A stretch of 63,971 nucleotides of DNA, the filler included, from Octopus bimaculoides (Eukaryota): the NCBI RefSeq assembly GCF_001194135.2. It is 7 parts of 6 records of this genome, joined end to end, with 100 filler letters (N's around TTAATTAATTAA, not from the genome) between each part and the next. Parts side by side here need not be neighbours in the genome. Positions count along the whole stretch, not along the records: positions 6,620 to 29,882 come from NC_068998.1; positions 29,983 to 34,779 come from NC_068984.1; positions 34,880 to 45,909 come from NC_068986.1; positions 46,010 to 51,532 come from NC_068989.1; positions 51,633 to 62,094 come from NC_068983.1; 2 more parts are not named here. The stretch is one strand, 5' to 3'. Position 1 is the stretch's first letter. Each line of letters opens with the position of its first letter. The position numbers were made by a program, and so were the translations under genes. The notes beneath the pieces are model-generated. The model had not been told where the DNA came from. It did no database searches and worked only from the letters and a program-made list of their open reading frames with translations. Shown piece after piece: positions 28,141 through 53,180 of the stretch.

Positions 28141-28386
28141 GTCAGTATTCAGTTTATTTAAATATTTCTTGCCAATAAAGAAAGAACCGGTTTCTAACCT
28201 AGATCCAAGGCTCCTTCACTGGAATTTCAACATCAACAACGGGGTATGTATGCATGTATGCATGCGCAGATTTGTATGGTTTATGTATGTATTCTCATGC
28301 ATATAGTTGCATATCTAGACATGCTCATATATATATTGAAACGTTAAACTTCTAGAAAGTTTTACAGATTTTTAGTTCCAATGATG
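28141..28386 (-). mobile_element. R4/Dong lineage 1: 5'-truncated copy (ORF end plus complete 3' UTR) inside a (TATG)n tract
   Basis: Reverse complement aligns with 33030-33316 (GGAACT..AAAAATCTGTAAAAC...TGTTGATGTTGAAATTCCA...GGATCTAGGTTAGAAACCGG...CTGACATAC). TATG repeats lie on both sides. Confidence 0.85.
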
Positions 28387-28510
28387 TATGTATGTACGTA
28401 CGTATGAATGTCCTTATGTATGTATATACGTACATATGTATGTATTTATGTATATATGTATGTGTGTATATGTATGTGTGTATATGTATGTGTGTATATG
28501 TATGTATGTA

Positions 28511-28880
28511 TTCTTTTCCTTTTTAATTTAGAATAAATGTTGACCGATCACCTGCTTGATAGCAAGGTCGTGAAGGAAAGACTCTGGTTTTGTTTATCAT
28601 CCCTCAAATCTTAAGAAAGATTTTACAGATTTTTATTATTCCAAATATCGCGCTTCTTTGTAGTGTTCGGACGGATTCGTGTACATTCGGTTGCTCCAAT
28701 AATAATAATAGGTATGGAGCTGAAAGTGGATCTCGGGTACTGGATTTGCAAATTACTGATTAGTAGTCCATATATATCCTCTTTCTCTTGTATTTTTCTA
28801 ACCACATTGCTGTCCAGTGGGTACGTTTTCCACGACTGAACATATTTTCTCTTGTGGCCTAATACACAAATATCTGGTCG
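28511..28880 (-). mobile_element. R4/Dong lineage 2: 3' fragment with restriction-like endonuclease and 3' UTR
   Basis: Translation HIRPDICV...YPLDSNVVRKIQEKEDIYGLLISNLQIQYP...IPIIIIGA carries the RLE PD motif. The 3' UTR (GGATGATAAACAAAAC...CCTTGCTATCAAGCA) is shared with 42950-43140 and ends in (CATA)n. Confidence 0.8.
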
Positions 28881-28924
28881 TATGTGTGTATATATGTATG
28901 CATGTGTGATGTTAATTTCCGTTT

Positions 28925-29050
28925 TCAATTTAAATTTGTAATCATGGTAGAGGAACTGTAGATATTGTAGTAGTTGTCCATACTTATTAACTTCGCTGAA
29001 TTTGGAAGAGATATTCTCATCTACAGGGCAATGCAGACATATTAAGCATA
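28925..29050 (-). mobile_element. Further R4/Dong RLE fragment stacked upstream of the previous copy
   Basis: CPVDENISSKFSEVNKYGQLLQYLQFLYHDYKFK is homologous to SCPADVSIKTKISEEEDTYAELLRNVQLPYPDYKFR of 32780-32900. It is preceded on the minus strand by ATACATACAT. Confidence 0.7.
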
Positions 29051-29882
29051 AATGTATGTATTCCTGTATGAAGTATCTTAAATTACTTCTTTTTTTTATG
29101 GAAGTCCCTTGAGCACTGTAGATATAGCTAGGCAAATGTGCAGACGACAGCTACTGAGCCAGAAACATGTGTTCTCACATGTCCCTTTGCCTCCAGACAA
29201 TAATAAGCTTGTCATTCCCCTTAATGGCATGTCAATTTTGGAGAAATCTTGATTTTTGTGGTTATCTCACTTTCCACGTGGAGCCACAGTTGCCATTAGT
29301 GTGTGTATGTTTGTGTGTGTGTGTGTATGTGTGTGTATGCATTATTCAGATTATGTTGCAGAAGGTTAGTATTGCGTGGGATACCGTCTGGAGTAGTCAA
29401 TATAAGGCATAAACCATAAACTACATCGGGAGTCGTGGTGAGTAGTCAGCGTGTGTTTTGTGGGGTTAATGAGATAGAAGCAACAGACACGTTAAGAGGA
29501 GCGCACCAAAGGTTAATACAGTATTCAGGCACTGCTGTAAGAGTTGTAATATGGGGCATCTGCATGTTAAAGTCTCGATTCCTCTGGGTATTTTAGAAAA
29601 CATTGGTATTCAGCAGACAATTTATGTACGCTTAGGCTATAAAGTCTTTGCAGTTAGTTATTCTCTAAATATACCATACAGCTAAAACGAATATAAACAC
29701 ATATACATGCCCATCTCTCTTTCTCTCACCCTCTCTCCCTCTTTCTTTCTCTCTCTCCGCATATATATATATATATATATATATATCTACCTTTCTATAT
29801 ACATACACACACACATTTATGCATATATATGTCTATATACACAAATATATTTACGCGTATATATATACATATATATATATAT

Positions 29883-29982
29883 NNNNNNNNNNNNNNNNNN
29901 NNNNNNNNNNNNNNNNNNNNNNNNNNTTAATTAATTAANNNNNNNNNNNNNNNNNNNNNNNNNNNNNNNNNNNNNNNNNNNN
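29883..29982. other. Artificial 100-bp scaffold spacer
   Basis: N44-TTAATTAATTAA(29927-29938)-N44. Confidence 0.95.
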
Positions 29983-30002
29983 AGCCGGGTATTTCTGCTA
30001 GT
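29983..30002 (+). mobile_element. Possible Helitron 3' terminus
   Basis: AGCCGGGTATTTCTGCTAG|T has a CTAG terminus about 10 nt after a GC-rich half-hairpin. The other arm would lie in the gap. Confidence 0.4.
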
Positions 30003-31111
30003 ATATATATAGTTTTAGGGAAAAGAACCAATGTTCATGAACTCATCGATGAAAATCCACTGTCACATATAGAAAAATTAATAAGTAAAAACACAATAAA
30101 TAAGTATAATATAATACAAAGTAAAATATCATAAGATAATGATAATTAAACGACTGCACGTGTTTCATAACCAGTTTTCAAATAGAAAGAATATTTAAAT
30201 CGATTAAAACTATCGAAAATCAATTCTATTCAAAAACATAGCTAATTTTCAGGTCAAAATACAACAATAATAATAATAAAAGAATGTATATATCAACCAA
30301 CAATAAATAATAAATGAATGTATATAAAATACTTATTATATTATGATAGAAAAATATTATTAAAGATATCAAAATTATAAACGTTCCAAATTAACTTTAC
30401 GTTTATTATAATATAAGCCAACAGGAATATTATATGCAAAAACTAATTTTCACGAATCTTTCGTTTAAAATACAATTTGAACGAGGTTTTAGGCTAAAAT
30501 AATAGAGATAGAAGTAGTACATATCTAAACGATGCTATAGTTTAAACTAAAAGATTTTAGAATAAAACGTTTATTTGAAAGAAGTCTCGTGAAAATATTG
30601 CGTAAAGAAAAAGAATAGAATAAATAGATATAAAAACATGAATGAAAATTTTATTATGAATGAAAGATTAAACTTTATATAACTTAAATCATAATAAAAC
30701 AATTAAGCCGTACTCCGTGCGGACTTTTAGGCTATCTCCAGCGGAGAGCTAATTGGGCCTGCGGCCCAAAACTAATGAAAGCAATAATAATAAAGCAGTA
30801 TCCGTACTTTGCCAATATGGTATAACTTTAAATTCAGTTTAAATGAAAAACATAGGACATACATATACTATCCTGTCTTGTTGATCGACTATGCCTTTAC
30901 AACAAATACCCTGCTATTGTTGAACATTTCATTCAATTTTTTGTAACATTTGTGAACGTTTTTCTCACATTTAGTGAGAAAGGTATCGTTTATAGAAAAT
31001 TGTTTAAAATGCTTATTCTCTAGTGATAGTATGAAATTATATTTATAGGCATATTTGTTTATGGGCCTGGTTACGTTACATAGAAATTATATCTATAGTC
31101 ATATGTATTAT

Positions 31112-51532: not shown

Positions 51533-51632
51533 NNNNNNNNNNNNNNNNNNNNNNNNNNNNNNNNNNNNNNNNNNNNTTAATTAATTAANNNNNNNNNNNN
51601 NNNNNNNNNNNNNNNNNNNNNNNNNNNNNNNN
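51533..51632. other. Artificial 100-bp scaffold spacer
   Basis: N44-TTAATTAATTAA(51577-51588)-N44. Confidence 0.95.
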
Positions 51633-52255
51633 TATATATATATATATATATATATGTATATGTATATGTATATATATGTATGTATGTATGTAGGTTGTGT
51701 GTTTTTTGTGTGTATGCGTATGCGTGCGTTCATGCTGTTGGTAGTGAAATAATGTCTTTATTATCTAGATATTTCAATAGCTGTTTGCATTCCCGGTATG
51801 AATTTAATACAATATCGCCTCTAGTAATGTTGTTAAAAATATCTTCTCCGAGTCGTTGTGACTCATTTCATAATGCATCTTCCCCTTCTTCACTTCCTGT
51901 ATTCTGTATAACTAAATACACTCGAAGAAAACAGATTTCCAGGATAGGCCGTAAGTCTTTTGCGCATTAACTTCCTCCGTAATAAACAGAACTGAGTGAC
52001 TTGGTCAAGGACATACTTCGTAACCGTTGAAGACTTTCAACTGAATATCGACATATGAGTTGTACATGTGGTTATTGTTTAGCCCAAGGTCAGCACAGAT
52101 GGGATGGATCTGTGTTCAAAGATTATTGCATCATTTTAGGATTATGCAGCATTCCGTTTTCTTCGGTGTACGCCATCTCTCCGTATTGTTGATCAAAGAT
52201 AACACCAAGCCAAACATCAAGACCCGTGCCGATATCTCGAGCCATGGTTTTCGTA

Positions 52256-52461
52256 TACAGTAATCACTCGCCATTACGCAGTTCACCTGTCGCGGTTTAT
52301 TATTTAAGCTTACGTCGATTCCTCTGTGGTGCTGTTTTGCATTTATAATAAAATAAATATATACAAATTATAAAAAATAATAAAAAAAAATATAGTACAA
52401 TACTGTTTCTACTTCGCGGATTTTCGCCTATCACGGTGGGGCTTTGGCGAATCCGGCTGTA
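52256..52461 (+). mobile_element. pogo/Tigger-like MITE, degraded
   Basis: TA|CAGTAATCACTCGCC left TIR, CTACTTCGCGGATTTTCGCCTATC subterminal motif, degenerate right end GGCGAA...CTG|TA. Confidence 0.5.
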
Positions 52462-52509
52462 CTCTTTCTCTCACTCTTTCTTCCTATTTCTGTTGTGCCT
52501 GTAATTCAA

Positions 52510-52680
52510 AGGGTCAGCTTTGTTACACACTGTGTTACGCTGAATTTCCCCGAGGACTACGTTAAGGGTTCACGTTACTGTGGAGTGCTCAGCCACTTGC
52601 ACGTTATTTTCACGAGCAGGCTGTTCCATTGATCGGATCAAGTGGAACCCTCGTCGTCGTAACCGACGGAGTGCCACGTG
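52510..52680 (+). mobile_element. SINE family D, 3' half
   Basis: Homologous to 42320-42485. Confidence 0.8.
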
Positions 52681-52696
52681 TATATGTAAATATGTG

Positions 52697-53030
52697 AAGG
52701 CGCATGGCTCAGTCGTTAGAGCGTAGATCTCACAATCATGTGGTAATGAGTTCGATTCCGTGACCGGGCTGTGTTGTGATCTTGAGCAAGACACCTTATT
52801 TCATGTTACTCCAGTTCACTCAGATGTAGAAATGAATTGTGACGTCACTGGTGTCAAGCTTTATCGATCTTTACCTTTTCCTTGTATAACATCGGTGGCA
52901 TGGAGAGGGGAGGTTGTTATGCATGGGTGACTGCTGGTCTTCCATAAACAACCTAACCCGGACTTGTACTTTGGAGGGGAACTTTCTAGGTGCAATACCA
53001 TAGTCAGTTATGACCAAAGGGGTCCTTATA
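52697..53030 (+). mobile_element. tRNA-derived SINE with C-type head and a different 3' body
   Basis: A-box TGGCTCAGTCGTTAGAGC, B-box GAGTTCGATTCC, GTTGTGATCTTGAGCAAGACAC shared with family C. The 3' body differs from 50600-50700. Confidence 0.8.
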
Positions 53031-53067
53031 TGTATGTATGTATGAATGCATGTATATATGTACGTAT

Positions 53068-53180
53068 GTCAGTTATTATTCAGTTTTATTTCAAGATTTC
53101 TTGCCAATAGAGAAAGAACTGGTTTCTAACCTAGATCCACGGATCCTTCATTGAAATTTCAACATCAACAACATGGTATT
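53068..53180 (-). mobile_element. R4/Dong lineage 1 distal 3'-UTR module bounded by TATG-type repeats
   Basis: Close match to 28141-28245 and to the reverse complement of 33215-33316. Confidence 0.85.

Follow-up and report, generated by a model that had tools for sequence, protein, structure and literature searches.

Dong elements, long interspersed nuclear elements (LINEs) of the R4/Dong clade, take (TAA)n microsatellites as their target (PMC3812793, PMC7998251), and in the accessible parts of the papers, a limit that holds for all literature cited here, the targets described for this clade are ribosomal DNA and (TAA)n. The clade is marked by an N-terminal domain of SANT/Myb-like type and by the lack of a zinc finger there, recognition of the target by this domain together with a restriction-like endonuclease (RLE) being argued, as an untested proposal, for Dong (PMC7998251), and for both Dong and R4 self-cleavage at the 5' junction by a hepatitis delta virus (HDV)-like ribozyme has been described (PMC3774820). 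Microsatellite targets are also found among other RLE elements, namely Togen, with (TG)n, and some HERO families (PMC4640811), and in Waldo elements, whose ACAY target class includes (CATA)n, that is, ACAT (PMC3812793). In octopus, Dong-R4 elements are abundant, with 51 families and 92.7 Mb in O. vulgaris (PMC13282606; see also PMC8967140, PMC10294476 and PMC9115989, the last giving a full-ORF Dong consensus for O. bimaculoides; for context only, PMC5035012 and PMC13586686), and the accessible parts of these four accounts state neither target nor tail. In the present study, we analysed a stretch of 63,971 nucleotides from Octopus bimaculoides (GCF_001194135.2), hereafter the window, in which a preliminary description had recognised fragments of an R4/Dong-type LINE and proposed (CATA)n as their target.

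The window holds truncated, decayed copies of at least two subfamilies of a single-ORF (open reading frame), RLE-type LINE whose 3' ends run into (CATA)n, and we consider it fairly probable that this LINE prefers (CATA)n microsatellites as insertion sites, the tails left by earlier copies among them. The resemblance to Dong of Bombyx mori, DongAg, DongBg and the ostracod Dong1/2 lies in the single ORF with reverse transcriptase (RT), CCHC motif and RLE, in the sense-strand microsatellite at both ends and in tandem stacking (PMC7998251, PMC3812793). Unlike Dong with its (TAA)n, the window lineage carries (CATA)n and its sisters (CTTA)n; it is further set apart by a long branch of its own and by a repeat tract inside its 3' untranslated region (UTR).

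All ten intervals of the preliminary description proved to be LINE-derived by tblastn, profile and DNA alignments, although they lie on four scaffold pieces, as judged from the spacer positions, and not on three. Its interval 39700-41455 is in fact two opposite pieces, 39698-40145 (plus strand) and 41478-40138 (minus strand), joined tail to tail near 40140, and two more pieces, 48354-48284 and a weak one at 41857-41660, were added. For each 5' junction we took the best 16-base match to (CATA)n within 8 bases upstream, given below as the flank score. The copies and their tracts are as follows.

28100..28140, minus strand: (CATA)n tail of copy D.
28141..28386, minus strand: copy D, 5'-truncated, with ORF end, UTR1, a short internal CATA-like tract and UTR2; the repeat is extended by CAT at its 5' junction (flank 14/16).
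28387..28510, minus strand: compound CATA tract, at once the tail of copy B and the 5' flank of copy D.
28511..28880, minus strand: copy B, second subfamily with the other 3' UTR, from the endonuclease PD motif to an intact 3' end (profile 48.3 bits; alignable with copy B2; flank 14/16).
28925..29046, minus strand: copy E, an endonuclease piece cut at both ends, with a short CATA flank (42 bits, shuffled maximum 24.3; flank 13/16).
32038..32165, plus strand: copy F, an old ORF end and UTR1 with a non-CATA 5' flank (8/16), behind a Mariner-like remnant; recognised by DNA similarity only (76% over 42 bp, E 5e-4), a protein search with shuffle control giving no match above shuffles.
32182..32250, plus strand: (CATA)17, end of copy F and 5' flank of copy A.
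32251..33313, plus strand: copy A, with thumb, intact CCHC finger, endonuclease without the PD region, UTR1, internal (CATA)n at 33154-33214, and UTR2.
33315..33342, plus strand: (CATA)7 tail of copy A, followed by an N gap.
39698..40145, plus strand: copy C, with endonuclease C-terminus, UTR1, internal (CATA)11 and the first UTR2 bases (profile 110.8 bits; 86.9% to copy A); its 5' flank is of (CA)n type (CATA 12, CA 14).
40138..41478, minus strand: copy G, in which the pre-RT region is joined in frame to the thumb and CCHC region, about 470 codons including the RT being deleted near 40580 (flank 16/16).
41479..41509, minus strand: (CATA)n, at once the tail of copy H and the 5' flank of copy G.
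41510..41640, minus strand: copy H, an old UTR2, 68% to copy J, starting within its own low-complexity UTR.
41660..41857, minus strand: H0, a weak, old piece of the post-RT region with a non-CATA 5' flank (6/16), narrowly passing the control (30.0 bits, shuffled maximum 28.9).
42495..42822, minus strand: copy I, a weak, heavily decayed piece of RT motifs 5-7 behind the B2 tail (27.3 bits, shuffled maximum 25.4; two collinear frames against P0112; flank 13/16).
42823..42944, minus strand: (CATA)n, at once the tail of copy B2 and the 5' flank of copy I.
42945..43141, minus strand: copy B2, second subfamily, intact 3' end, passing the shuffle control (flank 16/16).
43142..43260, minus strand: long CATA/CA tract 5' of copy B2.
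48284..48354, minus strand: copy M, an ORF end lacking UTR and tail, with a short CATA flank (13/16); 80% to copy A over 56 bp (30 bits, shuffled 25.0).
53029..53067, minus strand: imperfect (CATA)n tail of copy J.
53068..53203, minus strand: copy J, with UTR1 end, internal tract and UTR2; its true 5' flank is non-CATA.

Two candidates fell away: the interval 42540-42830 as an endonuclease piece, what is present being the weak RT motif 5-7 match, and 30952-31140 as a copy of the family (9.8 bits, below shuffles).

The earlier statement that every intact 3' end runs into (CATA)n was borne out, with a same-strand (CATA)n at six out of six (28141, 28511, 33313, 41510, 42945 and 53068). In the main subfamily the 3' UTR is laid out as UTR1-(CATA)n-UTR2-(CATA)n, copies D, J and H having a short internal CATA-like tract and A and C an expanded one. 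Loose ends behind position 33147, that is, behind UTR1, read (CATA)n in 102, 142 and 140 contigs from three DNA runs of two organisms (agreement 0.69-0.72), and the internal tract is therefore family-wide; the true tail after UTR2 was seen only in window copies. Since the fragments at 41510 and 53068 start within this internal tract, their apparent CATA flank is element sequence, and both were rejected as evidence of targeting.

At the 5' junctions the association is likewise present, to a lesser extent than the "nearly every" of the preliminary description. After copy H had been excluded for starting in its own tract and copy J had been re-scored at its true boundary (from 13 to 6), a same-strand CATA flank of at least 13/16 remained at 8 of 12 scorable junctions (D, B, E, A, G, I, B2 and M), and of at least 14/16 at five, with opposite-strand TATG reaching 13 at none. 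By comparison, 3.2% of all window positions and 5.4% of the AT-rich ones score at least 13 for CATA, as do 6 of 58 ends of other interspersed repeats with either strand counted, so that within the window the enrichment over AT-rich sites and over other repeats stands and exceeds chance. The nominal p is 3e-8 (binomial) or 1e-4 (Fisher), and 5e-4 for the eight flanks that are something other than another copy's tail, four of which are still CATA; these values are too small, because the junctions were placed by eye, the threshold was chosen post hoc and the copies fall into five clusters. Scores for TAA were 4-10 of 16 at all junctions which, with tails of CATA, means that the strict Dong pattern of (TAA)n as both target and tail is absent. 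Copy G and the other junction copies are truncated inside the ORF, so the repeat upstream of them is not the element's own 5' UTR. Copy G itself begins in the linker behind the N-terminal domain and is thus probably 5'-truncated; lacking the N-terminal block, it was rejected as a full-length 5' end.

Three DNA runs, two from organism A and one from organism B, were placed on 32251-33150 of copy A, yielding 17,358, 21,163 and 20,110 contigs, counts that do not translate into copy number; summed depth increased about tenfold toward the 3' end, the profile of a very abundant and mostly 5'-truncated LINE. The placed contigs showed many skip joints, a sign of internal deletions. Among the 24 of 2585 loose-end rows listed, ten lay before the placed sequence, of which eight are, by our own reading, family sequence where copy A is deleted or diverged; the two foreign 5' flanks, before 32853 (44 reads) and before 32937 (95 reads), are both same-strand (CATA)n. 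Both come from RNA run X24, whose reads fall on both strands at similar depth, the strandedness of the library not being stated. Altogether, the same repeat on the same strand bounds both ends of 5'-truncated copies in 8 of 12 cases in the window and in 2 of 2 in the reads, a small and clustered sample. The suggested link between TACA abundance and a retroelement applies to a part of the tracts: the 58 kb of called bases contain 23 loci with a CATA-type tract, of which 9 touch a piece of the family and 14 do not, hence the family is not the source of most CATA repeat in the window.

As for the identity of the family, a 212-aa open frame at 40282-40917 (minus strand) in copy G matched 250 proteins, which split into matches to residues 1-113 and matches to residues 111-212. 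Against the Argonauta protein P0153 (1098 aa), the first half corresponds to the pre-RT region (to 320) and the second to the thumb and CCHC region (from 791), and as the two halves flank the RT there, copy G must have lost its RT in frame; a dedicated non-autonomous family was provisionally rejected as an explanation, the fusion point being different in P0130. The nearest named proteins are P0001 of O. bimaculoides (76% identity) and P0112 of O. sinensis. A profile built from 13 close relatives scored copies B, E, A, C and G at 26-132 bits, identity to copy A is 63-87% across copies where they can be aligned, and the 3' UTRs are of two types, that of A, C, D, F, H and J and that of B and B2. 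The window pieces, none of them an intact copy, are collinear with the single long ORF of relatives, in which the order N-terminal domain, RT, CCHC, RLE is intact (L001, 1157 aa; L002, 1153 aa; P0153). RVT_1 is the sole Pfam match in long relatives (seen in P0010 and P0022), which show a C-terminal CCHC/RLE layout instead of an apurinic endonuclease (APE) N-terminal to the RT. Behind the RT, the CCHC finger, C-x2-C-x8-H-x4-C, is intact in copy A and has lost its His in copy G. The putative PD-(D/E)xK endonuclease region, whole in relatives, survives piecewise in the window, with PD in B, downstream parts in E and C, and the PD region deleted in A. Relatives share a conserved N-terminal block of about 85 aa that contains Trp and in which no C2H2 pattern was discerned by eye; this block is absent from the window. 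Pfam gave no meaningful match on nine window pieces, nor did a word-based search for the 212-aa ORF among longer proteins (409 candidates) find one. Judged from these comparisons, the fragments are real, decayed copies of a high-copy R4/Dong-like LINE lineage. They very probably belong to the annotated octopus Dong-R4 LINEs.

Relatives were sought by a metagenome scan, from which the best 80 of 348 matching loci were taken, and by a genome scan that added 4 more; viral contigs contained no relative. Locus L002 is complete, with about 25 (CTTA) units (1-100), the ORF, a 1-kb 3' UTR and (CTTA)12 (4822-4869). In L001, (CTTA)14 stands at the 5' end (1-56) before an intact ORF and the contig stops before any tail, while L004, its 5' end missing, has (CTTA)n at the 3' end (2770-2850). 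An IQ-TREE tree of 39 rows, in which the octopus rows fill only 18-36% of columns, united L001, L002, L004, P0153, eight unnamed proteins and the window family (win_G, P0001, P0112) in one clade at 100/100, on a long branch separate from 12 TAA-flanked loci. The lineage is placed next to the TAA-flanked loci and a Bombyx RT protein (85/69), in a tree without named R4/Dong elements and with a long outgroup branch; the R4/Dong-like assignment first proposed holds up, the ORF layout and the CCHC finger being as in that clade. R2 structures gave matches at E 7e-48 or weaker.

The relatives with CTTA at their ends and 3' UTRs of about 1 kb are thus sisters of the window family, and the pattern typical of Dong, the repeat at both ends, holds for CTTA in the one complete sister element. 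No end repeat was found in L003 (neighbouring clade) or L006 (outside the tree). Where the first downstream repeat was counted, 10 of 40 rows were dropped, the L003 query being a truncated ORF; in the 28 other loci whose C-terminus match was valid, the repeat was TAA-type in 20, ATG in 4, ACA in 1, ACAT in 1 and none in 2, and L011, L012 and L017 have TAA at both ends. In L074 an ATAC repeat stands behind an imperfect TAA tail, and the locus is not among the CATA cases. With CTTA in sister loci and mostly TAA in distant ones, the repeat unit follows the tree. A search for HDV-like ribozymes (Rfam) found none in L001 or L002 and equally none in five TAA-flanked loci, so that the test is powerless.

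A number of observations weigh against targeted insertion. Three of the 12 junctions are clearly non-CATA (F at 32005/32038, H0 at 41857, J at 53205) and one is (CA)n (C at 39698); junctions and threshold were set once the data had been viewed, on clustered copies; and no empty site or target-site duplication was seen, contigs breaking off at the repeat. Both CATA junctions in reads derive from a single RNA run, from the small share of loose ends listed; in one of them the repeat is preceded by a purine-rich stretch similar to the 3' end of subfamily B, and this flank may be a subfamily-B tail. Only three relatives in the clade come with DNA and only one with both ends, and assembled contigs of multicopy elements can present a neighbour's tail as a 5' flank. 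The TAA-tailed remnant at 53963 is preceded, at a distance of 15-30 bp, by a TATG tract on the opposite strand (score 12), which shows that repeat-rich spots collect elements anyway. Finally, four of the eight positive junctions sit on another copy's tail, as deletion or template-jump models would also yield.

The last point is the core of the strongest rival explanation, one that we nevertheless find unlikely: the repeat would be a 3' tail only, specificity would be low, and the CATA at 5' ends would arise through template jumps onto the (CAUA)n of another RNA or through deletions by which the tail of one copy meets a CATA-like word within its neighbour. Junctions A, D and B2 do fall at CATA-like microhomologies of repeat and element (7 nt, 3 nt, and 4 of 5 nt), and internal deletions are rife in the family, as copy G and the skip joints in reads attest. 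However, the members of each tandem pair (B then D, F then A, H then G, B2 then I) are of unlike subfamily or age. Such differences are not expected of one-step jumps, and we infer successive insertion from them. Moreover, B, B2, E and M carry CATA flanks with no family body attached (none lies upstream of the tract at 43142..43260), L002 has CTTA at both ends as Dong has TAA, and same-strand clustering would be required to occur without targeting. Distinctly less probable is an absence of targeting altogether, with copies landing or surviving in microsatellite-rich, unconstrained regions and CATA adjacency as mere background in a genome where CATA-type repeats abound, for which the 14 CATA-type tracts free of the family, the control ends scoring equally high and the TATG tract near the TAA-tailed remnant speak; yet such a regional bias predicts both strands as well as CA, TA and TAA repeats, equally common in the window, and the strand bias is 8 to 0 in the window and 2 to 0 in the reads. 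A relaxed, Waldo-like preference for A/C-rich pyrimidine-purine repeats (ACAY), in which CATA, CACA and mixtures all serve and the element's own tail makes CATA dominant, would differ from preferential (CATA)n insertion in strictness only and suits copy C abutting (CA)n, the G junction ending in CACAC and several CATA/CATG/CACA mosaic flanks, but pure (CA)n is far commoner in the window and holds only 1 of 12 junctions, making this very improbable.

The CATA association at both ends put forward initially holds up and gains further support from the two read junctions and from the (CTTA)n sisters, and the targeting itself we infer. In a literature search, no paper emerged that describes CATA, TACA or CTTA as a target of R4/Dong elements, with Repbase/Dfam, target tables and supplements, which may list one, outside its scope. 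An ACAT-including target is known from Waldo (PMC3812793), and the (CATA)n of the window family falls in the same ACAY class as that of WaldoAg1/2 and WaldoFs1; unlike the window family, Waldo belongs, according to the title of a cited reference, to the R1 clade, with an APE endonuclease and no RLE, and the common target would be convergent. Togen and HERO share RLE and simple-repeat targets with the window family and differ in clade and repeat unit (PMC4640811).

A second Dong-like lineage is present in the same window, its 3' end being the remnant at 53963-54243 (plus strand; K) with a (TAA)24 tail, and hence TAA-type and CATA-type lineages coexist in the genome, the former offering an internal control. 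A thumb-region remnant at 1875-2365 (minus strand), 64% to P0260 and grouping with TAA loci, likewise stems from a TAA-type Dong lineage; it adjoins a repeat resembling a short interspersed nuclear element and a long (TTA)n array (2641-3316). Among the metagenome loci, tRNA-like sequence directly follows the 5' (TAA)n flank in L005 (84-167), L011, L012, L017 and L019, by Rfam match in L005 only (30.3 bits) and by eye in the other four, which suggests a tRNA-derived internal promoter in TAA-type Dong loci. L081-L084 are eukaryote-type LINE ORFs on short contigs filed under prokaryote genomes, probably as contamination. Elsewhere in the window, what we take to be a decayed Mariner-like transposase remnant (31295-32000, plus strand; weak DDE_3 match, E 0.043) stands directly before copy F. 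The join of copies C and G (40100-40150) shows a short common word just after a 10-N gap and may be an inversion, a deletion between inverted copies or an assembly artefact. Between 21881-22522 and 25973-26476, 4 kb apart, a 317-bp stretch is 97.5% identical, each copy then followed by related microsatellite-rich sequence, which is either a recent local duplication or an assembly duplicate.

If insertion proceeds as in R2 and Dong, recognition and nicking of the (TATG)n strand would fall to the RLE together with a predicted N-terminal SANT/Myb-like domain. The RNA would then anneal to the nicked DNA through its (CAUA)n end, and target-primed reverse transcription would start from there. The truncated cDNA might then be joined to the upstream repeat by microhomology, often at a CATA-like word within the element. 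Every insertion would add tract and draw in later copies, giving rise to head-to-tail stacks, and the shift of target from TAA to C(A/T)TA would have occurred in the ancestor of the subclade. We regard it as an evenly balanced question whether a hitherto undescribed subclade of R4/Dong went from TAA to tetranucleotides, (CATA)n in octopods and (CTTA)n, one base apart, in another host, and whether it expanded massively in octopus while seeding and reusing its own landing pads.

If this is true, TAA, CTTA and CATA form a natural series for mapping how the target specificity of an RLE element is retuned. The CATA/CTTA clade includes intact ORFs (L001, L002 and Argonauta P0153), the first two being candidates for biochemistry, and would allow a test of the repeat-reading domain and of how a one-base change of target arises, which bears on the retargeting of R2-like elements. 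The general picture is unchanged, microsatellite targeting being an already known strategy. For octopus genomics, the finding would predict the landing sites of a very abundant LINE and explain some, though not most, of the CATA microsatellites.

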